Below, one piece after another: positions 554 through 43,920 of a stretch of 64,000 nt of DNA; the first letter of the stretch is position 1; every line of letters starts with the position of its first letter. The translations under genes and the position numbers were made by a program. The notes under the pieces were generated by a model. That model saw only the letters and a program-made list of their open reading frames with translations, did no database searches and had not been told where the DNA came from. This DNA is from an uncultured virus (IMG/VR IMGVR_UViG_3300042288_002474) (Duplodnaviria; Heunggongvirae; Uroviricota; Caudoviricetes). Where the stretch lies: the IMG/VR virus record IMGVR_UViG_3300042288_002474. The stretch is one strand, 5' to 3'.

Positions 554-844
554 CTAAGGTTTTGCCGATTGCGATCGCTTGACTTTTTGCGATCTATATT
601 CTCTACCCTCTTCTGTCCATTGTTCCCAACAGACTCTACAGTAGCCCTGGTTTTTAGCAGTATTAATGCTTTTGTTGCAAGCTAAACACCGGGGTTTTAA
701 ATTAGTCCTGGGGACGTAAAAACTCCTGGTTTTAGCCGCATTAAAGGCGAGACCCTCTTCTGTCTTCAGCCAACACCTGCTACAGTGTGGGGATTTACTA
801 CTATCCGATCTTAACTTTTTTCCGCAGGTTATACAGTTATTCAC
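554..844 (-). CDS. Small protein with two tandem Cys4 zinc-finger-like repeats
   Basis: CITC..CSRCW and CLAC..CRVCW. Confidence 0.65.
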   Translation of the reverse strand: MNNCITCGKKLRSDSSKSPHCSRCWLKTEEGLAFNAAKTRSFYVPRTNLKPRCLACNKSINTAKNQGYCRVCWEQWTEEGREYRSQKVKRSQSAKP

Positions 845-910
845 GGGTGTTTTTTATTTTTTAACTAAGCTGGTTTAATGTCATAGCTTAGGACATGATT
901 CTTAATAGTT

Positions 911-2833
911 TTAGGACGAGGCTTTTAATTCCTTAAAAGCCACACTTTCTTTAAAATCTTCCCATGATTCTTCCCATGATTCACAACCTACGGCAGAATC
1001 AATAAATTCTAGCCATTTTAAACTCGCTTCATGGGCGTTATCTTTTTTTATCCCTTCACTTTCGCATAGGCTTAGGAAGGTCTCTTCACTCATTACTCCC
1101 CTTATATAACTTTTAAGATTTTCTTTAGCTTTATTGTCACCAGTTCTAAAGTATCCCCTAACGTCGTCTAATCTGCGACCCTTAAAAACTTTTTCAAGAG
1201 ACTTATCTCTTAAGATAAGTCTCTCCTCCGGCGTGAGTTTTTTAATCAAAACTTCCGCAAAAGTCTTGATTAGTTTTGGTTCTATTCCATTTTCTATGTA
1301 CTTCCTAAGACTATTCAGAGCCATAACCTCAAATTGGGTTAAACCCCGCGCAGTAAAATCCATCTTAACTAAAAGTTTTATAGCCGCTTGGCTTTCTTTA
1401 GTCAGCATATTTTTATTTTCCTCCTTTTCCTCTTCTGTTGCGATCGCGTTATTATCAGTAGGTAAGGGTAGGTTGCTAAACTCACCATTTAGCAACCTAC
1501 CCTCCTTAATTACCTCAACGACATCTATCAATTTGGTAAACTTCCCTCTTCTGTCGGAAAGGGAACTTACGCTAAAATTACAATACTCATTGGTGAGTTC
1601 TGTCAGTTCATAACCCGCATTTTCTGCATATTTCTGTACCTCCTTGAAGGTCAATTCTTTTTTCTCAACTAAGTCCTTAACTTTTGCCATAAGCTTTATG
1701 GCAAAAGTTGAAGCACCCTCTCGGGTTTTAAACCTAATGGTAGGTTGTGTTTTATCCTCATTAAGAGGTTCTCTTAATAATTGCGAGTCCGCGCCCATTA
1801 GCTGCCATCCAAAGATAGGATCATGGATTAGTTTAACCTCGTGGTGTACAGCGGGGTTAACCGCTACCATTTTGGTTAATATTTTAACCTTTGTAACCTT
1901 ACCTACTGTTGCGATCGCGTTATTGTCGGGACTAGGTAAATCACTATCCTCAAGAGTTATTTCTTTTTTCTCAACTAATTCCTCTGTTATAAAAAGTTGT
2001 AAGGTTTTTAAACTAGGGAATGTTTTAATAACGTTATTTTTTATTAGCCTGAACATTCCCCCAAGCGGTTCTATCTCATAACCCGCATTTTCTGCATATT
2101 CCCGCACTTCCTTAAAGGTCAAGGACTTAGTTAAGGGCAAAACTAAATCCTTTGCGTTATTAGCGATCGCATTAGTAGGTAAATCACTATCCTCAAGAGT
2201 TATTTTTTTTTTGCCCTCAACCACCAATTCCTTAACCCGTGCTTTATCTTCCTTACTAATGGTATTTAAAACCAGTAGTGCGCCCTCGTAAACGCCTCTA
2301 ATATCTCTAGAGTCATGGGGATAGCTTACCCATGCCGTTAGTTTACTGTATGCAATCCGCTCTAAATTGCTCCAATTACACCTTACGGGATCTAATTTGA
2401 CAATCGCCTGAATAGCGGTTTTGTTGTCATCTGTTAAGGTAAATTCAACCTCTTCCTTAACTTCCGTAACTTTACCTACTAATGCGATCGCATTAGTTAA
2501 AGGTAAATCACTATCCTCAACAGTTTCCTTAACTTCCTCCTCCTTAACATTAACCTCCTCCTTAACATTAACCTCTTCCTTAACTTCCTCCTCCTTTACA
2601 TACTTCACATACTCGTCAACGGACGAGTATTTACTAAATCCATCGATCAAAACGAACTCGTCGTTATTTTCATTAACTCTTATCTTAACCTTACCCTCTT
2701 GATAGCAGTTGTTTAAGTCACTAGTCCAAAACTCTTTGTAGGTTATAAAGCACTTTGTCCGCGACGTAACGAGGATGACGATCCCTCTACGCTCATTTTT
2801 GTAATAGTTGCCGGTTACGAATGTATTAGCCAT
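911..2833 (-). CDS. Modular repeat-containing protein of unknown function
   Basis: 640 aa; EEV(N)VK repeats, four EDSDLP/NLP..NAIA linkers, duplicated LTFKEVxxYAENAGYE; AGAGGT SD. Confidence 0.8.
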   Translation of the reverse strand: MANTFVTGNYYKNERRGIVILVTSRTKCFITYKEFWTSDLNNCYQEGKVKIRVNENNDEFVLIDGFSKYSSVDEYVKYVKEEEVKEEVNVKEEVNVKEEEVKETVEDSDLPLTNAIALVGKVTEVKEEVEFTLTDDNKTAIQAIVKLDPVRCNWSNLERIAYSKLTAWVSYPHDSRDIRGVYEGALLVLNTISKEDKARVKELVVEGKKKITLEDSDLPTNAIANNAKDLVLPLTKSLTFKEVREYAENAGYEIEPLGGMFRLIKNNVIKTFPSLKTLQLFITEELVEKKEITLEDSDLPSPDNNAIATVGKVTKVKILTKMVAVNPAVHHEVKLIHDPIFGWQLMGADSQLLREPLNEDKTQPTIRFKTREGASTFAIKLMAKVKDLVEKKELTFKEVQKYAENAGYELTELTNEYCNFSVSSLSDRRGKFTKLIDVVEVIKEGRLLNGEFSNLPLPTDNNAIATEEEKEENKNMLTKESQAAIKLLVKMDFTARGLTQFEVMALNSLRKYIENGIEPKLIKTFAEVLIKKLTPEERLILRDKSLEKVFKGRRLDDVRGYFRTGDNKAKENLKSYIRGVMSEETFLSLCESEGIKKDNAHEASLKWLEFIDSAVGCESWEESWEDFKESVAFKELKASS

Positions 2834-2981
2834 TTTCCTTTACCTCTTCCTTTACTTTTTTACTTTTTGTTAACTCTTAATCCTAAGCTTAACTACTTCT
2901 TAGGATTAAGAATGCGATCGCTTAGGCATTAAACCTAAGTCGGGAGTCATAACTCACTCGACCGCAATAACTTATTTAAAG

Positions 2982-3218
2982 TTATAAACTAGCCCAGTAT
3001 TTGACTGTTTTTAAGTAGTTGCACAGCTTCTCAATTCTTACCCAGCAATTGATCCGGGATGGAACTAAAACTGCTGTTTGAAATAAAACCTCTTCTGGTA
3101 ACTTGTTTTTGATATATTGCCTAACTAATTGTGGCGTTATATCTTTGTCGTTTTCCTGATTAAAATCAGGGAATACTTCTTTAACTAGTTCTTTAATTTC
3201 TGCTATTTTATTTTTCAT
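2982..3218 (-). CDS. Hypothetical protein
   Basis: 78-aa ORF with AGAGGTAAGGAAA leader similar to that of neighbouring genes. Confidence 0.7.
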   Translation of the reverse strand: MKNKIAEIKELVKEVFPDFNQENDKDITPQLVRQYIKNKLPEEVLFQTAVLVPSRINCWVRIEKLCNYLKTVKYWASL

Positions 3219-3451
3219 TTTCCTTACCTCTTTTTTAACTTTCTTAACTTTCTTTATAATAGCGCACTCTTAAAAATAACGCTACAGTATTTTAAAATTA
3301 ATTTTATGTATAAGCTAGGACTAAGTAATTTAACTCTTAAATATTTCCTTAGCGATCGCTAATTTAATCCTTAAATATTTTAAATTTAGTGCCGGGACTT
3401 TAATTAATTTATTTAAGGGGGGGTCGCGGGTCAAGAATAATGTATGAATTA

Positions 3452-3493
3452 AAAAAATAAACCTCTTAAAACTTAATTTAAGAGGTTTATTTT
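3452..3493. terminator. Intrinsic terminator hairpin
   Basis: AAAATAAACCTCTTAAA / TTTAAGAGGTTTATTTT inverted repeat downstream of ORF 3511-3780. Confidence 0.7.
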
Positions 3494-3510
3494 AAGAGTA
3501 TTTTAAGGTA

Positions 3511-3780
3511 TTATCTTAACAAGATATCCGACCCTAATATCTCTTCAGCAAAGGGATCGTTTATCCCCAAATCGTGGCCGTAATCGTATCCTTGAAAAAG
3601 ACCTTCGCCATAATGTTCTTGATGGTGTTCCCGAAGGTTATAGTTTGCATAGTCTTCCTCCTTCTTTTTTCTATACTCTATATCACAGTGGTTTAGGTAA
3701 GGTCTGGAGATAGGGATCTCTTTTTCGTTGTCAGTTACTAGTACGAAATTGTCTCCAGATATGGTCTGTACGGTCTTCAT
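3511..3780 (-). CDS. Hypothetical protein
   Basis: 89-aa ORF with its own promoter (3826-3854) and terminator. Confidence 0.7.
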   Translation of the reverse strand: MKTVQTISGDNFVLVTDNEKEIPISRPYLNHCDIEYRKKKEEDYANYNLREHHQEHYGEGLFQGYDYGHDLGINDPFAEEILGSDILLR

Positions 3781-9296: not shown

Positions 9297-9325
9297 ACTA
9301 TATACTTTTTATATACCGCCGTCAA
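9297..9325 (-). promoter_or_regulatory. Conserved phage promoter
   Basis: TTGACG-GCGGTATA..(17 nt)-TATAGT. Confidence 0.7.
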
Positions 9326-10338
9326 TCCCCAAAAGTATTAAAAGTATTTTTTATCTCCTCGCAAATTACTTTAATAAGTAATGGTGGTACAGAATTGCCA
9401 ATTACATGAACATCCAAGGCGTTTTTGCCAGAAAATTCATAACTTGGCGGAAAAGTCTGCAATCTAGCCAAACACGCCACGTTTAAGCCTTTTACAACGC
9501 CATTTATGCTTACATCTATTAACTTTTCCCTATTCGCACCCTTTCCATCGCTTCCTAAAGATGCTTTTAAAGTCCAAATTGGTGAATCTTCCTCACGGAT
9601 TTTATTCACCCCACTCCTTACGCCAACTCTTTCTACGACTACCTTGGCATTACTAAAGCCTTTATTCCTTAAACTTAGAGAGTTAAGTTGTTTTCTGGTT
9701 AAACTAACTTCTTTTAAATTAGGGATTAAATCTTCAATTGCTGAGTACCATCCTACCCATTCACCATTATTTTTACTATGCGTAGAACTAATCCTTACGG
9801 CAGGGAAATTTCTATAGTTAAAAATAGTAATTAATCTTTGGCGAGTTTGTGGCACGCCATAGTCAGCACAGTTAACTATCTCCTCAAAACTTATTTCATA
9901 GCCTAATTCCTTAAGGTAATTTTTAAATTTAATATAAACCTCGCTTTTAGCATAAGCCCTAACGTTTTCTAAAATTACATATTCAGGTCTAAATAAAGCA
10001 TAAAACTTCCTTGTCTTCCAAATGACTTTTGCACTTTCGGAATTAGGATTTTTATTTAGTTTTAATTGGGAATACTCCTGACATGGTGGCGAAGTTTGGA
10101 TTACTAAAATCTCATTATTCTTTTCCCTTGCCTCTTTTAATGGAATATGTTTTATAACACTTAGGATACTTACCTCTCCTATATCTTGGCAAATTACTTT
10201 ACCTAAATTCTTCTCATATAATTCCGCCACTTTCTTATCCCACTCAATCCCCAGCAAAGGTATAAACCCAGCTTGGATTGCTCCCAAAGTTGAGCCGCCA
10301 CCGCCGCTAAAATGCGAAAACCATAAAAACTTTTTCAT
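9322..10338 (-). CDS. DNA cytosine-C5 methyltransferase
   Basis: Motif I FSGGGG, IV SPPCQ, VI ENV, VIII QTRQR, IX RLQTFP, X GNSV. Confidence 0.93.
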   Translation of the reverse strand: MKKFLWFSHFSGGGGSTLGAIQAGFIPLLGIEWDKKVAELYEKNLGKVICQDIGEVSILSVIKHIPLKEAREKNNEILVIQTSPPCQEYSQLKLNKNPNSESAKVIWKTRKFYALFRPEYVILENVRAYAKSEVYIKFKNYLKELGYEISFEEIVNCADYGVPQTRQRLITIFNYRNFPAVRISSTHSKNNGEWVGWYSAIEDLIPNLKEVSLTRKQLNSLSLRNKGFSNAKVVVERVGVRSGVNKIREEDSPIWTLKASLGSDGKGANREKLIDVSINGVVKGLNVACLARLQTFPPSYEFSGKNALDVHVIGNSVPPLLIKVICEEIKNTFNTFGD

Positions 10339-10562
10339 TATTTCAAAACCCTACTTTCTATTTCTTTGCTAATCTCCAAAACTTTCCAGCGGCACTGATT
10401 TAGGTATTTAAAGGATTTATAATAATTTTTATAATCCTTACTTTTCTCCTGCGCCACAGATTGTTTTTCCAATATTTCTACGCTTTCTTTTATGTTATAA
10501 AGCATCTGCCACAATACCTCTATATGAAGTATTTTTATTGTGTTTAAAAATGGGTCATACAT
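10338..10562 (-). CDS. Hypothetical protein
   Basis: 74 aa, overlapping both neighbouring genes. Confidence 0.55.
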   Translation of the reverse strand: MYDPFLNTIKILHIEVLWQMLYNIKESVEILEKQSVAQEKSKDYKNYYKSFKYLNQCRWKVLEISKEIESRVLK

Positions 10563-11475
10563 TACTAATAATTAACTCCTTAACTTTACCTCTTTCCGCG
10601 CCTTTACTATTTATCGTACCATTTCTCCAAACTTCATTAATTTTAAATTCATCCCCATTGTACAAATCTAAAATAAAACTATTGTGAGAATTGCAAAGTA
10701 AAAACTTTATTTTATTTTCATTGTATTCCCTACATACGTCTCTTAATTTAACTTGCTCATCTTCCCCAAACGGGCTTTTGTTATAACCATTAAAAGTCCC
10801 ATGATAAGGTGGATCTAAAAATACAAAATCGCCAGGTTGAGGCAAATGACTAATATTAAAGAAAGATGTATTAACTACCGCTACATTATTACTGTTTAAG
10901 GCTAAGTTTGCCTCACTTAATAATATTGGCTGGTAAATCTTTTGTGTTAAATCCCCCATTGGGACATTAAACTCGCCATTTTTATTAACGCGATACATTC
11001 CTGATCTACAAGCCTTATTTAAGTAAATAAACTTTGCGGCATTATAAACATCTAACGTAAAAGTTTTGTTCCTTACTTCTTCAAAAAAAACCTTATCGTG
11101 AGATTCTGCAAATTCCTTTAAAAGAACTTGTTTTAATTTACTTAAATTATCCTTAACTTCTTTATAAGTATTCACTAAATCCGAGTTTAAATCACTTAAC
11201 AAAGCCCTCTGTATTAACCCCGCATTTTGGAGATGGAAAAACATTGCGCCGCCACCTAAAAATGGCTCAAAATAAGTATTAAATTCGGCGGGGATTAATC
11301 CTAATTCTTCGTATTGAGGAATTAATCTAGTTTTGCCTCCTACCCACTTAAGGAATGGTTTAAAATTTTTATCTTTAACTATTTCTGTTAAACAATTAAA
11401 GTCATGTTCGTATTTTAATTTTGCATTATTGGGAAGGACGGTTATAGCTTGAGGGTTGTTGTATGCGATCTTCAT
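10555..11475 (-). CDS. dam: Dam-family DNA adenine methyltransferase
   Basis: KWVGGK, EPFLGGG, YRVNKNGEFNVP, DPPY. Confidence 0.9.
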   Translation of the reverse strand: MKIAYNNPQAITVLPNNAKLKYEHDFNCLTEIVKDKNFKPFLKWVGGKTRLIPQYEELGLIPAEFNTYFEPFLGGGAMFFHLQNAGLIQRALLSDLNSDLVNTYKEVKDNLSKLKQVLLKEFAESHDKVFFEEVRNKTFTLDVYNAAKFIYLNKACRSGMYRVNKNGEFNVPMGDLTQKIYQPILLSEANLALNSNNVAVVNTSFFNISHLPQPGDFVFLDPPYHGTFNGYNKSPFGEDEQVKLRDVCREYNENKIKFLLCNSHNSFILDLYNGDEFKINEVWRNGTINSKGAERGKVKELIISNV

Positions 11476-15889: not shown

Positions 15890-18800
15890 TTATTTGCCCT
15901 CTTCCTTAAATAAGCACTTATCCGAGTCGCATCCGGCCGGGCCAACTTGAGAATCTTCCACTTCCGCTGCGCTTAACCTTATTTGCAAAAGTTCATCAAA
16001 ACTACTATTTTTACGGCGAGCTAAAACCTCTCCCCATAAATCTTCATATTTTTCCTTAGAAATTGGCTCAAATGGCAGACGAGGGAAAGTTTCGCCACCG
16101 TCAAATCTTGCCAAAAGTGCCGCAGAACTATATCCGCCACAATTTTGGATGTTCTGGTAAAGGAGTTGTGCATATTCCCCAATTTCCTCTTGACGTATTT
16201 CCAAAGTTGCTGAAGTATTGTGAGTTGCGTAGTAATTTTGTACTTGTAGGTAAAAGTCAAATTGGGCTTTTGCGCTAAATTTGCTTATATCTACATCTTC
16301 CCCGATGTTATCCGCCCAGCTAGTTTTTGTGGGAATTTCTACCAACCATTCCGTAACTCTTGGGTCAAATGGATCGTTTAATAAATTACCCTCAGCATCT
16401 TTACAAGATTGGGAAGGAATAATACTGTAGCCATAGTCCATACAAGCTAAAGCTACTGCATCGTCTCTGCCAAAAGTAATCCGACGGATAAATCTAGCAG
16501 CTTTTGGAGGATGCCAACCAGGAGACGCGCCAGTTAAGAGACTCTTAGTCCCGCTTGGTTGCACCGTAGTACATCTATTGGGGCGTTTAAGCGAATGTGC
16601 ATGACAGTATTCCCAAACTGCTTTATGGGCTTCATCTTTAAAAAGCGTCAGGTAAAATTCTTCCAAGGCTTTAAAAAGTAGTCCGTTGCAAACGCCGGGG
16701 TGTTTTATAGCAAATTTCCCTTGGCTTTTATTCCAATCGTTAATAATTTCAACTACCTCATCTGGGAATGTTTCTATCCAATTTTCTAAATCCTTTGATG
16801 TGATAAAGTCTCTGTCTGAGTATTCCTCCCTGCCGCCTTCCCACCAGCGCAACCAACTTTCCCCAAATAAATTAACGAAAAAGTCAAATAAGCCAGTAAA
16901 GCTAACGCCAACAATAGGGTCTAACTCCCTAGATTTTTGATATCTCTCGTCAGGGAATTTGTCATTTAATAGTACGGCTGCAATTAAACCCGCAGCCCTA
17001 AATGAGTCTCTTAAACTATTTAAGTCTTTTCCATCTAGCGTGTTTAGGTGTACTTCAGCGAGATCGCAGAAAAAATTGTTACCCACAATTTCTCCGCAAT
17101 TATGCGCGACAAAGCCCTCTACTACACCCCAGTGCGTTATTGGTTCAGAAAAATCATAAACTTTTACAATCCCTTGTTTTTCTACTACCGATATTGAGGG
17201 AGAGGTTGCCAAGAGAGTTTTGGCAAATTTATCAATCTTGTACGAATGAATAAAGTTGATTTGGTTGAAGAATGAAAGTCTCCCTTTGTATTGCTGAATA
17301 TTTACGTCGTAACTTTCTCTACATTGGTAAATACCGTTAGGAAACGATACGGTTGACGGTCGGTTGATGGTAATATAAGCTTCTATGCCAAAGTCTGCTT
17401 TTAAAGAATCAACAACCTGTTCGCCCATTTCTCTACAGGTCGTCTTTAAGGTCACTCTGCCGTTTTTTAGAACACTGCCGTTAGCTGAATAAAGTCCAGA
17501 CAAGAACGATGCTTTTATGTCTAAGTCCCAGCCTTTATAAGTGGATGGGAGTGCGCGAAATGGAAGGGTGTAAAGAGAAAAGTCGTATTTGTCAATTAAC
17601 TCATTCAGTCCGTTAACATAAATACGCCTTTCGCCATGTTTCTTGCATTTCAAACCTTCCGTTTCTTGGAAAAATTCTAGGATTTCTTGATCCTTTTTAC
17701 CTATGTTGACAGCAACACCTAGTTGCCCTTTTTTGTCGCCTTTCAAATCAGATAAATCAGATAATTGACCATCACCTTGGACAAATCCTAAACAAACGAA
17801 TATTTTATTCTTATGCTCTGGCACTTTTAAGAATGGCATTAATCTGTCACCCGGTCTTAATTCAGATGCGTCAACTCTTTTGCCATCAATATTTAAAAAA
17901 GAGTGATCTGGAGTGCAGTGAATACTTCCATAAGCCCCCATTCCTACCCTTACGGTTTCCTTTTCACCTGAACACCATATATGAGATAGAGAAACATTGC
18001 CCTCTGCGTTAATTATCTCTACATCTTGACCGTCCAACGACTCGAATGCTCTGTAACCATCTTTAGTTAATATTTTCATATCCCCACGAAAACAAGGGTT
18101 GGTAGCGTACCTAGACATCCTTTCTTCCGCTTCAGTAATACTCAACAGCCCTAACTTAGCTAAAAAATTTAATGCTTCATTTAAGGACTTATTGTATAAG
18201 TCTAAAAACTTATTTTTTAAATCCTTATTAGAGAGTAAATCCACGTTAGCTCTAGCTACCGCTTCGCCAGCCCATTGAATTGCACCTTCACCGCTGTGGA
18301 ATTGTTTTTGCACACTTTTTTTGACCTCTTCTAAAGTTGGGCGACGGTGATAAACTAACGTATGATTAGCCATTCTTAAGCAATCTTTGTCAGGATCTAT
18401 TTTCCAGTTACCCTCATTGTCTTGTTGCCACAAGTTATCTTTAGCTGTTGCAAACTCTATATCTTCTGGCGAACCCTGTCTCATGCCCGCCGACCTTCTT
18501 ATATTTCCGGCTACAATTGTAACACTAGCCTCATCAATTAACTTGCATAACTCTAAAGCGGTAAGTTGGCGACCTATAGCCCCGTTTAAAATCTTAGCTA
18601 ATTTTCCATACATCCCAGCTAAAGCTATGGGATTAGCTGTTCCGCCAAAGCCTTTAAGTTTTTCCCCACTACTTCTTACCGCACCTAAGCAAACGAAAAC
18701 TTTAACGTTTTTCGCTAAATCTTCCCTTGAAGACAACTCTAGAAGTGTAAGGTAAGAGTCTACCCAACCCTTACGGCTATCTCCAACAAAAATGTTAACT

Positions 18801-19273
18801 TGTCCGCGCGCGCCGCTAACGATAGTGTCATCGTGCCTGTTTTCTTTTTTTACAGTGCCAGGTAAATTAACAATCTCTACGCTTAAATTATTCCTTATAA
18901 TAGGAAGATTTTTAATATATTTATCTTCCAACACTGCGCCAGTCCCGCATCCCTGCATAGCCAAATTCATCATTAAGCTTAATGCTTCCCAGTCTGTAAT
19001 GTTTGTGGATGAGCAATTATAAGCACCGTAAACGTTTTCTGGCTTTTTTAACCAGTCTGTTCCGCCACACCACAGCCACCTTCCACTACTTAATACTTTA
19101 AATTCTTCCTGCGATCGCCTAATTAAGTCACCCTCAGCCTTAGTTAATTTTCCCAGAGAAATTAATGCCGTAATTGTCCGGTCACAAACATCTTGCCATG
19201 TCTCTTTTTTACTTCTTGAATAAGTGCGGTAAAACACAGGTTTTGCGGACGGAGCATAAACTTCGTTAAACAT
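15890..19273 (-). CDS. nrdJ: Class II (adenosylcobalamin-dependent) ribonucleotide reductase containing an intein
   Basis: FYRTYSR, YNCSS, GNIRRSA, NP/CGEI active site, TTVQPSGT, C-terminal CDSDKC. Confidence 0.95.
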   Translation of the reverse strand: MFNEVYAPSAKPVFYRTYSRSKKETWQDVCDRTITALISLGKLTKAEGDLIRRSQEEFKVLSSGRWLWCGGTDWLKKPENVYGAYNCSSTNITDWEALSLMMNLAMQGCGTGAVLEDKYIKNLPIIRNNLSVEIVNLPGTVKKENRHDDTIVSGARGQVNIFVGDSRKGWVDSYLTLLELSSREDLAKNVKVFVCLGAVRSSGEKLKGFGGTANPIALAGMYGKLAKILNGAIGRQLTALELCKLIDEASVTIVAGNIRRSAGMRQGSPEDIEFATAKDNLWQQDNEGNWKIDPDKDCLRMANHTLVYHRRPTLEEVKKSVQKQFHSGEGAIQWAGEAVARANVDLLSNKDLKNKFLDLYNKSLNEALNFLAKLGLLSITEAEERMSRYATNPCFRGDMKILTKDGYRAFESLDGQDVEIINAEGNVSLSHIWCSGEKETVRVGMGAYGSIHCTPDHSFLNIDGKRVDASELRPGDRLMPFLKVPEHKNKIFVCLGFVQGDGQLSDLSDLKGDKKGQLGVAVNIGKKDQEILEFFQETEGLKCKKHGERRIYVNGLNELIDKYDFSLYTLPFRALPSTYKGWDLDIKASFLSGLYSANGSVLKNGRVTLKTTCREMGEQVVDSLKADFGIEAYITINRPSTVSFPNGIYQCRESYDVNIQQYKGRLSFFNQINFIHSYKIDKFAKTLLATSPSISVVEKQGIVKVYDFSEPITHWGVVEGFVAHNCGEIVGNNFFCDLAEVHLNTLDGKDLNSLRDSFRAAGLIAAVLLNDKFPDERYQKSRELDPIVGVSFTGLFDFFVNLFGESWLRWWEGGREEYSDRDFITSKDLENWIETFPDEVVEIINDWNKSQGKFAIKHPGVCNGLLFKALEEFYLTLFKDEAHKAVWEYCHAHSLKRPNRCTTVQPSGTKSLLTGASPGWHPPKAARFIRRITFGRDDAVALACMDYGYSIIPSQSCKDAEGNLLNDPFDPRVTEWLVEIPTKTSWADNIGEDVDISKFSAKAQFDFYLQVQNYYATHNTSATLEIRQEEIGEYAQLLYQNIQNCGGYSSAALLARFDGGETFPRLPFEPISKEKYEDLWGEVLARRKNSSFDELLQIRLSAAEVEDSQVGPAGCDSDKCLFKEEGK
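17099..18094 (-). mobile_element. Intein (332 aa) with LAGLIDADG homing endonuclease in nrdJ
   Basis: Starts CFRGD, block B TPDH, LGFVQGDG and FLSGLYSANG motifs, ends VAHN followed by Cys+1. Confidence 0.92.
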
Positions 19274-41485: not shown

Positions 41486-43864
41486 TTAATTATTTAAACG
41501 CTGGTTAATAATCTCAATATATTCCTGTTCTCTTTCAATTAATGTGTAGTTAAATCCTAAGTTTTTAGCAGCAACTCCAGTTGTACCACTACCGCCAAAC
41601 GGATCTAAAACCATGCCATTTGGAGGAGTTATAAGTTTTATAAAATATTCCATCAGTGCTGTACTTTTAACCGTCGGGTGTGTATTTTCTACCGTGCCGT
41701 CACAGGTTCTATCTTTGGTTGATGCTTTAGCTTGGTAGTAAACGCTATTTACCGTTTCAGGGTCAAATGGTAGTTGCTTGAAATATCTTGCGGCTGTTCC
41801 TGCGTCCCCTAACCCGCCGGAATTTTGTGCTAATGATTGGTTTTTAAAATCTCCATAACAAGAACCTTGTAATCCTGTTTTAGTCTTTCCTCCCGTACTA
41901 ACACTAATCCCGCTCTGTTCACCAATAACTGACACCGGACAATCTGGGATATGGTTATCACCGTCACAACCAGCACTACAGGAAAGGACTAGGTTGGCAG
42001 GGTAGCGACTTTGCGATGACCGGATATTTCCTAGTTCGTATCTTTGATAATCAACACCGTTATTGTATTTACCAGAAAATTTACTAGGGACTGTTCCGTT
42101 TTTGCGACTCCATCCCTCAGTCCCAATCCTACACGCTTCAATATTCAACCCGCCAACGCCGTGTTTTAAAATATTCCTAGCAATACTACTCTCACTAATT
42201 GGTTTTTGAATTAACCACCAACCCTCAATGGCTGGTTTTAGTGCCGGGGTTTTCCAACCGTCCCATTGTTTTGCTTCGGGTGTATTAGGTTTTGTAACAT
42301 TTACAAATTCTTTAGCTTCCCAGCTATCATCATTCATCAAGCCTAACGCTTTTTTCCCATGCTTAACGCTCCCTATAATTTCCCTTTCAGCACCATAGAA
42401 CGCATCTATACCTTTGCTAATATCCTGTCCCTTGGGGAAGCCGCTATTACCTGTTACAAATATTTTACCATTGCGTCTTGCTATGAAGGCTGTGTCAGGT
42501 ACAGATACACACCAAACAACGCCTTCATAATGAAAGGGTGTTACGGTTGCCAAAGTGGTTTTACATCCAGATTGCCGTGTTCGTATAGCTTGTGATGACT
42601 GTTGTTCTGAAATAGCATTAAATTCTCTATCCTGTTGTCTGTAGGATCGTGGTTGATGTGATGCACAGATTCCGTTCTTAAAAGACATCTTCCCAATTGT
42701 TGAGCCATTATCAAACGATGCTCCATTACATAACCATCTTTCCTTGCCATTGCAAGATAATCCTTGGGGCATCTGACATAACGAACATTCTTGTAATTCC
42801 CTTTCTTTTTGAATATCGTTACACCGCCCTTCCATGCCGGATTGTTCTCGCCACCCATGCTGACTGCATAAGATTCCAGACTCTTTTCCGTCCAACCCGC
42901 ACGACCCAGTTTTGCAATGTTCTTGAGATGTTCCAGTGTTTTGGGATTCTTCTTTTTGTCCTTGCTTGCACACATTCGAGAACAAAACTTCTGAATTGAC
43001 TGATTTGTTTTGGGATAGAACTCCATCTGGCACTCTTGACATACACAGGTCGGTACTCTCTTCCCTGTCTTGGCTTTGGCTATTAGACTCTTTGCACAAG
43101 TCTCTGAGCAGGTTATATTTCTCATAGCCTGAAAAGCATTGTGTGTCTGAAATGGTGTGTTGCAACAGAGGCACTGTTTCCAAAAAGGGAACTGATACTT
43201 GCTGTTCAAGTGTAGTGGCTTCTCTAAATACAAACGCTCCGTTTTGTTCAATAATGCAACGATGTCCGATGGAGACAATTTGCTCTGTAGAATCTGATTC
43301 AATTCGGTATGCGGTATCCGAGTAGTCGAAACGGTAGGTTTGCGTAACACTTTGGTAAGAAAATGAATTATTTTCTATATTATAGCCTATTACTGTATCT
43401 CCTATCTCACATTGTTGGTAGTGTACCCACCCCTTATCTTTTACAAATATTTCCGTATCTTCAGATAGACACCCATTGCAATGATGCACAATATCAATCA
43501 ACCTAAACCCTGCCAACTCTAAAGCCATGCCAGTCCAGTGCGATGTTCTTGGGATACTCCAAACTAAACCACACGCTCCTGGTTTCATAACCCTTAAACT
43601 TTCTGCCATAACCTCAGACATCCAATTAATCCATTGGAGCATCCCGCCTTTATGATCATCCCAATTCTTACCCATGAAGCTAATTCCGCACGGTGGATCT
43701 GTTATTAAACTATCAAAATAATTATCAGGCAAAGTTTTTAAAACCTCCAAACAATCGCCTTGGATAATTTTATTCTTGCCAAGACCCCTTACCCTATCCA
43801 ATTCTCTTTTTAACTGGAGAATTTCTAACTCTAATTCTTCCTCTAGCTTTGTAATGTATGCCAT
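41486..43864 (-). CDS. Beta-class N4/N6 DNA methyltransferase containing an intein
   Basis: GDCLEVL, TDPPC, G|SGFPK, LKPA.E, HPTVK, VLDPFGGSGTT. Confidence 0.9.
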   Translation of the reverse strand: MAYITKLEEELELEILQLKRELDRVRGLGKNKIIQGDCLEVLKTLPDNYFDSLITDPPCGISFMGKNWDDHKGGMLQWINWMSEVMAESLRVMKPGACGLVWSIPRTSHWTGMALELAGFRLIDIVHHCNGCLSEDTEIFVKDKGWVHYQQCEIGDTVIGYNIENNSFSYQSVTQTYRFDYSDTAYRIESDSTEQIVSIGHRCIIEQNGAFVFREATTLEQQVSVPFLETVPLLQHTISDTQCFSGYEKYNLLRDLCKESNSQSQDREESTDLCMSRVPDGVLSQNKSVNSEVLFSNVCKQGQKEESQNTGTSQEHCKTGSCGLDGKESGILCSQHGWREQSGMEGRCNDIQKERELQECSLCQMPQGLSCNGKERWLCNGASFDNGSTIGKMSFKNGICASHQPRSYRQQDREFNAISEQQSSQAIRTRQSGCKTTLATVTPFHYEGVVWCVSVPDTAFIARRNGKIFVTGNSGFPKGQDISKGIDAFYGAEREIIGSVKHGKKALGLMNDDSWEAKEFVNVTKPNTPEAKQWDGWKTPALKPAIEGWWLIQKPISESSIARNILKHGVGGLNIEACRIGTEGWSRKNGTVPSKFSGKYNNGVDYQRYELGNIRSSQSRYPANLVLSCSAGCDGDNHIPDCPVSVIGEQSGISVSTGGKTKTGLQGSCYGDFKNQSLAQNSGGLGDAGTAARYFKQLPFDPETVNSVYYQAKASTKDRTCDGTVENTHPTVKSTALMEYFIKLITPPNGMVLDPFGGSGTTGVAAKNLGFNYTLIEREQEYIEIINQRLNN
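42446..43471 (-). mobile_element. Intein (342 aa) in the methyltransferase
   Basis: Starts CLSEDTE, block B SIGHR, block F VWCVSVP, ends FVTGN followed by Ser+1. Confidence 0.88.
42541..43350 (-). CDS. HNH endonuclease nested in the +1 frame of the intein (start uncertain)
   Basis: CLCC..CSETC and CQEC..CSRMC zinc motifs, GENNPAWKGG, YVMEHRL..VHHINHDPTDNRIENL. Confidence 0.85.
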   Translation of the reverse strand: MLRKPTVSTTRIPHTELNQILQSKLSPSDIVALLNKTERLYLEKPLHLNSKYQFPFWKQCLCCNTPFQTHNAFQAMRNITCSETCAKSLIAKAKTGKRVPTCVCQECQMEFYPKTNQSIQKFCSRMCASKDKKKNPKTLEHLKNIAKLGRAGWTEKSLESYAVSMGGENNPAWKGGVTIFKKKGNYKNVRYVRCPKDYLAMARKDGYVMEHRLIMAQQLGRCLLRTESVHHINHDPTDNRIENLMLFQNNSHHKLYEHGNLDVKPLWQP

Positions 43865-43890
43865 AACTTAATTTAAATATCTACACTTAA

Positions 43891-43920
43891 ATTTTACCAT
43901 ACTCTATCTACCGTTGTCAA
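43891..43920 (-). promoter_or_regulatory. Conserved phage promoter
   Basis: TTGACA-ACGGTAGA..(18 nt)-TAAAAT, extended TGn. Confidence 0.7.

Follow-up and report, generated by a model that had tools for sequence, protein, structure and literature searches.

An HNH endonuclease gene nested in the +1 frame of an intein in a phage DNA methyltransferase

In the usual account, an intein is a splicing domain to which a homing endonuclease is fused in frame. The subject of this article is an intein in the N6/N4 DNA methyltransferase gene of an uncultured tailed phage from a lake (IMG/VR record IMGVR_UViG_3300042288_002474; the window is the whole stretch of 64,000 nucleotides that was analysed), which carries an HNH endonuclease gene in the +1 frame of the same strand while the methyltransferase frame, here called the host frame, stays open across it. 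A few out-of-frame cases have been published, and their authors suspect that annotation misses many more.

The closest described systems are the following. The ShiLan domain, as described by Arsenault, Gosselin and Gogarten (Genes 2025, PMC11855218), is an HNH that lies out of frame in the mycobacteriophage DNA methylase gp65; it has no splicing domains and is proposed to stay in the protein unspliced. An intein in gp65 is mentioned there as well. Actinophage inteins are surveyed in bioRxiv 10.1101/2025.01.02.630785, which describes out-of-frame endonuclease open reading frames (ORFs) and proposes that a free-standing endonuclease gene invaded the intein. For a cyanobacterial dnaX intein an out-of-frame LAGLIDADG ORF is described, the idea being credited to Gorbalenya 1998, in bioRxiv 10.64898/2026.09.14.751524. 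Split inteins in fractured genes, with a free-standing endonuclease gene between the halves, are described by Dassa et al. 2009 (PMC2677866).

Based on the analysis of the window and of a large family of related loci, the element described here is probably a composite mobile element, in which a class-1-type intein is combined with a separate, internally initiated HNH homing-endonuclease gene within a phage methyltransferase. The two-frame layout itself is confirmed, and for practical purposes its explanation as an assembly artefact is refuted.

The intein and the nested reading frame

The methyltransferase precursor reads, in order, ...IVHHCNG^CLSEDTEIFV...IVSIGHRC...VPFLETV; a stretch of about 200 residues with many Ser, Gln and Cys comes next, followed by ...TLATVTPFHYEGVVWCVSVPDTAFIARRNGKIFVTGN^SGFPKGQ, where ^ marks a splice junction or the corresponding empty site. 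The intein was placed at 42446-43471 because its junction motifs read HCNG^CLSEDTEIF ... SIGHRC ... FVTGN^SGFPKG. The following features were assigned:

41486..43864, minus strand: N6/N4 DNA methyltransferase precursor ORF, 792 amino acids, no stop, open across the intein
43472..43864, minus strand: N-extein, residues 1-131, C-terminal end ...IVHHCNG
42446..43471, minus strand: intein, 342 amino acids; Cys1, block B S-I-G-H, ...FVTGN, then Ser+1
43142..43471, minus strand: N-terminal splicing domain, intein residues 1-110; beta-rich in the model, mean model confidence (pLDDT) 84-98 per 10-residue block
42572..43141, minus strand: central host-frame stretch of the intein, residues 111-300; stop-free, not conserved as protein; the -1 reading of the HNH gene
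42446..42571, minus strand: C-terminal splicing domain, intein residues 301-342; the HNH ORF ends within its first approximately 10 codons
41486..42445, minus strand: C-extein, beginning SGFPKGQDIS
42541..43350, minus strand, +1 frame: nested HNH ORF, GTG 43350-43348 to TAA 42543-42541, 269 amino acids
42592..42720, minus strand: HNH catalytic core, HNH residues 211-253, Pfam HNH_3

In Pfam the 792-residue ORF matches N6_N4_Mtase (1.9e-27), and in BLASTP the methyltransferase is homologous to the gp65 methyltransferase of Mycobacterium phage ShiLan. The first residue of the intein is the nucleophile Cys (host residue 132), which is invariant in the 75 aligned inteins of the family described below. 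Block B is defined by the motif (T/S)xxH with a conserved His; the window has S-I-G-H here, most relatives have SRNH, and the His of the block (H70) is invariant in the 75 sequences, as is the C-terminal Asn (N342), which is followed by Ser at +1. In the AlphaFold model of the host-frame intein residues 1-110 and 301-342 have pLDDT 84-98, with strands at 304-341, while residues 120-300 have pLDDT 41-60 and this stretch has no secondary structure past residue 127. All 15 Foldseek matches of the intein model at E<=1e-3 were inteins, Hedgehog domains or bacterial intein-like domains. Judged from these motifs and from the model, the insert with its HINT-fold halves is an intein of class 1 type, and it is predicted to splice.

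The nested ORF is shifted by one nucleotide relative to the host frame ((43864-43350) mod 3 = 1). Its product consists of N-terminal helices, two zinc ribbons (CxxC pairs), an NPAWKGG motif and the HNH core; it matches Pfam HNH_3 (2.7e-9, 36.9 bits against a cut-off of 24.8), and residues H231, N239, N243, N250 and H253 are invariant in the 75 sequences. AlphaFold modelled the HNH-frame protein with a mean pLDDT of 90. The best structural match in a VIA search was I-HmuI (Z 5.7, root-mean-square deviation 4.1), with only 74 aligned residues. A Foldseek search of the PDB with the whole model returned nothing at E<=0.001, likely because the model is multi-domain, like beads on a string, and a profile search of PDB sequences with the HNH returned nothing at E<=0.01. 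Homologues of the HNH make up 823 protein clusters of 147-471 amino acids, typically about 50% identical over 96% of the query, and in an alignment of 13 of them the N-terminus lies near MTTxIP and the end near PIWQx throughout. No in-frame fused form was found among proteins of 472-2000 amino acids, a search that counts as weak evidence by the tool's own rating.

A sequence-only reading of the window had placed an intein with intact splicing blocks at 42446..43471, had described its central part as off-frame-looking text without a stop and had recognised a well-formed zinc-ribbon/NPAWKGG/HNH nuclease in the +1 frame. These assignments hold: the coordinates are exact, the ORF at 42541..43350 passes the HNH_3 cut-off, and the central host frame is open, predicted to be disordered and the -1 reading of the HNH gene.

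It was clearly demonstrated that the two-frame layout is real. Contigs from four other public runs (two DNA and two RNA libraries, sampled in different years from lakes or fresh water) were compared with the window; they span 42300-43700 and show substitutions only, with no indels and no joints, so that the compensating indels which the sequence-only reading had wanted excluded are absent from them. The chance of an open host frame was estimated by 1000 shuffles of synonymous HNH codons. A mean of 16.2 host-frame stops was expected for the window's HNH and 0 were observed, none of the 1000 shuffles being stop-free; the third frame carried 12 stops against 12.6 expected.

An intron with an endonuclease ORF was also considered. 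No intron RNA family was matched in Rfam at E<=1 within 42200-43900, and a group I or group II intron was ruled out by this result together with the lack of joints in the RNA libraries and the open host frame.

A family of loci and selection on the two frames

DNA was fetched for 22 genome loci and for 80 viral loci, the latter being the best 80 of 360 viral stretches that encode a relative of the HNH. The HNH matched 100 loci in tblastn; in 95 of them the frame -1 to it is free of stops, whereas the other frame contains 2-34. Both splice-junction motifs, the same methyltransferase site and the HNH in +1 were found in 82 of the 100 loci, and 75 of these inteins are unique at the nucleotide level. 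The junction consensus of the family is ...W-x-Y-G^CLSEDTEI ... F-x-TGN^SGFPKS, in homologous methyltransferases, and the C-terminal half ...GAFVARRNGKxFxTGN^SGFPK is kept across the loci. The shuffling test was run on 68 loci and predicted a mean of 9.6 host-frame stops, whereas every one of these loci has 0; the proportion of shuffles without a stop was at most 0.031, and the third frame across the family had stop counts as expected. This count omits seven of the 75 unique inteins (L085, L087, L091, L098, L099, L101 and L102), apparently short forms, because the anchor pattern for the first zinc ribbon missed them. The check proposed by the sequence-only reading, whether both frames stay open in homologous inteins, was answered in the affirmative for these loci.

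The exceptions among the fetched loci are of several kinds. Two are free-standing HNH genes, L010 on the Curtobacterium pusillum plasmid pCPAA3 and L086; their neighbouring frames carry 8 and 18 stops, and no methyltransferase frame passes through them. L019 and L020 are weak HNH-only matches, L011 and L093 are cut by contig ends, and in L053 the N-junction was missed by the search pattern; L019-L022 are omitted from one hand-typed locus table. In the intein-bearing locus L004 the sequence past the HNH stop is without a C-terminal splicing half or an SGFPK extein, and this copy is probably broken or rearranged. Short nested HNH forms, which appear to be without the first zinc ribbon, stand in inteins of 269-291 amino acids (L005, L006, L008, L077, L081, L085, L087, L091, L098, L101 and L102). 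Among GenBank phages the full arrangement was found in only one uncultured record, LR756508.1. The nearest record (G001), a fragment estimated to be 65% complete, has no HNH or methyltransferase match and is uninformative on presence or absence.

In order to see which frame is selected where, codon-position variability was computed across the 75 unique inteins. Host position 3 is the most variable one through the N-extein and the N-terminal splicing domain. The pattern flips at the point where the host frame reads VPxLE and the HNH frame YPFWK (VPFLE and FPFWK in the window): from PFWK to the HNH stop it is HNH position 3 that varies most (0.5-0.68), and host position 3, which is HNH position 2, varies least. 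Past the HNH stop the greatest variability returns to host position 3. By this measure the splicing halves are under purifying selection at the amino-acid level, and the flip means that in the central, approximately 190 codons only the HNH is under amino-acid selection, the host frame being merely open.

A different situation was found around block B, where one further feature was assigned:

43183..43329, minus strand: dual-coding stretch, HNH codons 8-56 over the intein residues around block B

The overlap was tested by resampling host-synonymous codons from each locus's own extein usage, with two control regions, in the 39 sequences whose register (IP at -45) is that of the window. The mean pairwise identity of the +1 frame was 0.561 against 0.247 expected, and none of the 39 sequences had a stop in this frame, against 1.43 expected per sequence. 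In the controls, which have similar host conservation, the +1-frame identities were 0.30 against 0.28 and 0.26 against 0.24. Since the +1 identity exceeds that of the resampled sequences and the controls are flat, positions 43183-43329 of the window encode two selected proteins at once; the alternative that the N-terminus of the HNH is a mere by-product of intein conservation was rejected by the same test. Two confident helices were predicted by AlphaFold in the HNH protein within this stretch (residues 14-41, pLDDT about 97). The sequence-only reading had stated that both frames are under selection. This is supported, in the form that approximately 50 codons over block B are constrained in both frames, whereas the central, approximately 200 host codons are kept only stop-free and it is the HNH frame that is under amino-acid selection there.

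The distribution of the element is patchy. When the 80 viral loci closest to the window in the C-extein were compared, the intein with the +1 HNH was present in 3 (one of them is the window's record), 72 had an uninterrupted ...G^SGFPK site and 5 were unreadable at the site; the nearest C-extein relatives (76% identity) are intein-free and read HHCQG^SGFPKGQDIG. Such a distribution fits a homing element, for which cleavage and homing are predicted. Ten of the loci matched by the HNH (L012-L018, L057, L097 and L100) have an empty intein site (Y followed by A, G or S and then SGFPKS) and no intein motifs; they carry a shorter HNH of the same lineage in the +1 frame, approximately 10-15 residues downstream of the empty site. 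Their host frame is stop-free as well, where 4-12 stops are expected (e.g. L012, host residues 110-280). Read in the host frame, these intein-less inserts are flanked by CxC and CxxC motifs.

The genes around the locus are those of a tailed phage: a large terminase, a prohead protease, a tape measure protein of 3210 amino acids, tail proteins, RecJ, a primase-helicase-like protein, a thymidylate synthase, a Pol III alpha subunit and a class II ribonucleotide reductase. Two more DNA methyltransferases are encoded at 9322-10338 and 10555-11475 (both on the minus strand), one of C5 cytosine type and one of D12-class N6-adenine type. The class II (B12-dependent) ribonucleotide reductase ORF (15890-19273, minus strand, 1127 amino acids) contains an ordinary in-frame intein, in which Pfam finds LAGLIDADG_3 at residues 586-639 and Intein_splicing at 412-725, in agreement with the in-frame endonuclease that the sequence-only reading had noted there. 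Because the ribonucleotide reductase intein is in-frame, the same phage holds one canonical and one non-canonical intein.

Production of the nuclease and competing explanations

The proposed mechanism is as follows. The intein would have been inserted between ...YG or ...NG and SGFPK, with the HNH gene on the same strand, in +1, in the slot usually occupied by an in-frame endonuclease. Ribosomes translating the methyltransferase would read straight through, so that the central, approximately 190 residues of the intein would be a disordered wrong-frame read-through product, which selection would keep stop-free, and the two HINT half-domains would splice the methyltransferase together. The nuclease would be made separately, by internal initiation within the region coding for the N-terminal splicing domain; since initiation would lie inside this region, the nuclease would carry approximately 50 N-terminal residues co-encoded with block B, and it would end at its own stop just where the C-terminal splicing domain begins. 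Its presumed role, considering its family membership and the patchy distribution, would be to cut intein-free methyltransferase alleles and to drive homing.

Internal initiation is favoured over frameshifting by the sequences of the family, because there is a column of ATG codons with a Shine-Dalgarno core and an open, conserved +1 frame upstream of the frame switch. The start column lies 49 codons before an invariant Trp and holds ATG in 35 and GTG in 7 of the 75 inteins. A Shine-Dalgarno core precedes 19 of the 35 ATGs (background 11.4%, p 8e-10), the +1 frame opens just before this ATG in several members, and the HNH frame is open for at least 50 codons upstream of the invariant Trp in 71 of 75. 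That the nuclease is made as a separate protein, as had been suggested from the window alone, is therefore the most likely case. The specific start suggested at the same time, GTG 43350, is not supported: it is not the start position of the family, and it is lost in a near-identical strain.

Several observations weigh against this composite element. The RNA-library contigs possibly come from contaminating DNA and were not taken as proof of transcription. Neither ATG nor GTG is present at the start column in 33 of the 75 inteins, which must start elsewhere, and the penultimate residue of the window's intein is Gly and not the usual His. At HNH codon 8, the start column, the window has TCG (43329-43327) and not the consensus ATG, and the only upstream candidates are GTG 43350 (-56) and several TTGs, without a Shine-Dalgarno core. 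Furthermore, five substitutions lie within the HNH ORF in near-identical strains, and none of them is HNH-synonymous; three are silent in the host frame (42551, W267 to stop, run X15; 43229, Y41 to C, run X17; 43349, GTG to GCG, run X16) and the remaining two change both frames.

These substitutions may reflect a relaxed constraint on the nuclease in the lineage of the window, five changes being a small sample. Because the ATG is replaced by TCG and a start at GTG 43350 or at a TTG is needed, the window's HNH copy may be weakly expressed, or it may be decaying. A further step would be to suppose that the family is functional while the HNH of the window is no longer expressed or is decaying, with the host frame alone still selected in this lineage and the intein persisting because splicing must continue. 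This explanation is unlikely, yet it deserves serious weight: besides the missing ATG and the three host-silent changes that damage the HNH, the relatives P0004 and P0007 (about 85% identity) read as a one-base indel which scrambles both frames. However, the HNH frame of the window is uninterrupted over 269 codons, and all columns invariant across the 75 relatives are kept, the HNH and zinc-ribbon residues included. Five substitutions are too few for a test, and the weak-looking start says little because this phage rarely uses Shine-Dalgarno sequences, a core being present before only 9 of its 27 long ORFs.

The two relatives themselves are built as follows. P0007 begins with the methyltransferase N-terminus, continues through the host-frame linker and, near KKKNPK, passes over to the HNH frame; P0004 starts as HNH, and its departure from the HNH frame falls at that point. 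A single-base indel in a stretch rich in A, disrupting both genes, appears to be the cause, or else an assembly error in the relative.

The nuclease could alternatively be produced by programmed +1 ribosomal frameshifting at CCC-UUU-UUG-G, which would give a fusion of N-extein, N-terminal intein half and HNH ending at the HNH stop. The site in question is:

43189-43180, minus strand: CCC-TTT-TT-GG, at the switch of selection between the frames (host VPFLE, HNH FPFWK)

The motif is present as the sequence-only reading had described it, tRNA-Phe on UUU can re-pair with the overlapping UUU, and W-K-Q-C would follow exactly where selection switches. The survey of this site covered 60 of the 75 inteins (the others were missed by the anchor pattern), and the motif CCCTTTTTGGAA[A/G] was found in 13 of the 60. 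The T-run, however, is present in only 21 of the 60, most members reading CCCGTTCTGG or CCCATTCTGG. In addition, the +1 stretch upstream of the site, which is open over at least 50 codons in 71 of 75 inteins, is conserved as protein beyond the level imposed by the intein (0.561 against 0.247), and it is headed in many members by an ATG with a Shine-Dalgarno core. An open and conserved upstream +1 frame is not needed for a frameshift; hence frameshifting is disfavoured as the source of the nuclease, and we regard it as very improbable.

It is similarly hard to believe that the insert is never spliced out and is a tolerated loop in the methyltransferase, as proposed for the ShiLan domain. The penultimate Gly could be read in this way, as could the weak match of the 792-residue ORF to Pfam Intein_splicing (0.0035, 17.6 bits against a curated cut-off of 35.8), and in the ten intein-less loci this HNH stands in members of the same methylase family whose host frame is open. 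Nevertheless, none of the 75 inteins departs from Cys1, from the block B His or from the terminal Asn, Ser+1 is present, the flanks fold confidently as a HINT domain with the 15 intein and Hedgehog-type matches, and the splicing halves are under purifying selection at the amino-acid level and have homologues in the intein that ShiLan gp65 carries at this site.

Finally, an artefact of assembly or sequencing, in which two compensating indels would surround an ordinary in-frame HNH intein, can be dismissed with near certainty: the frame switches do adjoin short homopolymer runs (TTTTT at 43186-43182), but no indel appears in the contigs of the four other runs, the same layout is found in the 82 loci from unrelated samples at 40-57% HNH identity, the stop-free host frame is not due to chance (0 of 1000 shuffles), and no in-frame form was found among the longer proteins.

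Comparison with known systems

When the loci are compared within one methyltransferase family, one HNH lineage is seen to occur free-standing, naked in two frames at two sites, and nested in an intein. We tentatively suggest that a single HNH lineage has specialised on one family of phage N6/N4 methyltransferases, always out of frame and with an open host frame as its sole requirement, and that the endonuclease captured an intein or replaced its nuclease, as a stable and widespread strategy; this is a possibility to which we would give somewhat less than even weight. If it is true, four states can be distinguished: the free-standing gene, the naked +1 insertion just downstream of an empty intein site, the ShiLan domain in +2 at a third site, and the +1 form nested in an intein. 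In such a series nature would have recorded how an endonuclease gene captures an existing intein or takes the place of its nuclease. The nested form would then have co-evolved with the intein, approximately 150 nucleotides encoding block B together with a nuclease N-terminal domain that is structured, and nesting out of frame would be no transient accident, since it would uncouple the dosage of the nuclease from the output of the host protein.

The family is large, with 75 distinct copies fetched and hundreds more detected, and wherever a copy is borne by an intein, its nuclease is encoded by an overlapping gene of its own. It provides clean statistical evidence of a long reading frame kept open purely as a read-through linker, and an example of true dual coding in 150 nucleotides over a catalytic intein block. 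It should be emphasized that such inteins are liable to be misread as decaying or as mini-inteins. From a practical point of view, the family offers many natural HINT domains that tolerate a disordered insert of about 200 residues, and a series of HNH enzymes whose target is probably a conserved sequence of the methyltransferase.

The ShiLan domain is similar in several respects. It stands in the same host gene family (BLASTP against gp65 gave high-scoring segment pairs with E 6e-30 and 2e-16), its hidden HNH is homologous to that of the window (33% identity, E 4e-16), and the two elements agree in having the nuclease on the same strand but out of frame while the host frame is open. Matches to ShiLan, Mantra, Starcevich and others were also obtained by tblastn with the window's HNH. 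In contrast, the HNH of the ShiLan domain is shorter (195 amino acids), lies in the +2 frame and occupies another site, after ALKPSYEPVCVAVKP, whereas that of the window is in +1 and wrapped by an intein at YG^SGFPK. Since complete splicing halves surround its HNH, the window's element is not a ShiLan domain. The ten intein-less +1 insertions resemble the ShiLan domain but differ from it in site and frame.

The intein of ShiLan gp65 (L103, gp65 at 705-3587) provides a second point of comparison. It reads WLYG^CLTADTE ... TDQVLTPNHRV ... GAFVARRNGKVFITGN^SGFPKS, shares the insertion site of the window's intein and has splicing halves homologous by BLASTP. The two differ in the middle, which in gp65 is large, in-frame and, judged by eye, LAGLIDADG-like, whereas the window has the out-of-frame HNH there. 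ShiLan gp65 holds both this intein and the hidden +2 HNH at the second site. The family thereby connects the puzzling ShiLan domain with a bona fide intein of the same gene, a link of relevance to the origin of composites of intein and endonuclease.

The cyanobacterial dnaX system is likewise a bona fide intein with a disordered in-frame middle and a same-strand endonuclease ORF in another frame, and it also shows frame-dependent selection and a putative Shine-Dalgarno sequence before an internal start (bioRxiv 10.64898/2026.09.14.751524). It differs in that the endonuclease is a LAGLIDADG in the +2 frame and the host gene is dnaX in cellular genomes; the main-text sections consulted report no doubly constrained overlap with a splicing block, while the window has one. 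The actinophage inteins described in bioRxiv 10.1101/2025.01.02.630785 also have a secondary endonuclease ORF nested in the intein; they differ from the window in nuclease families and frames, and the HNH of the window overlaps the splicing domain by approximately 50 codons. In the fractured genes of Dassa et al. the endonuclease is again a separate gene between the intein halves (PMC2677866), but host gene and intein are split there into two ORFs, whereas the window has one continuous host frame.

The sequence-only reading had known of no characterised example of this arrangement. That claim is too wide, because out-of-frame endonucleases are already described for the dnaX and actinophage inteins, and a hidden HNH in a homologous methylase is described in PMC11855218. 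An HNH out of frame inside a bona fide intein was not found in the main text of PMC11855218 or of either bioRxiv preprint, whose supplements may list cases. An out-of-frame intein endonuclease as such is therefore already known; what is new here is the HNH class, the very large family and the genuine dual coding over block B.

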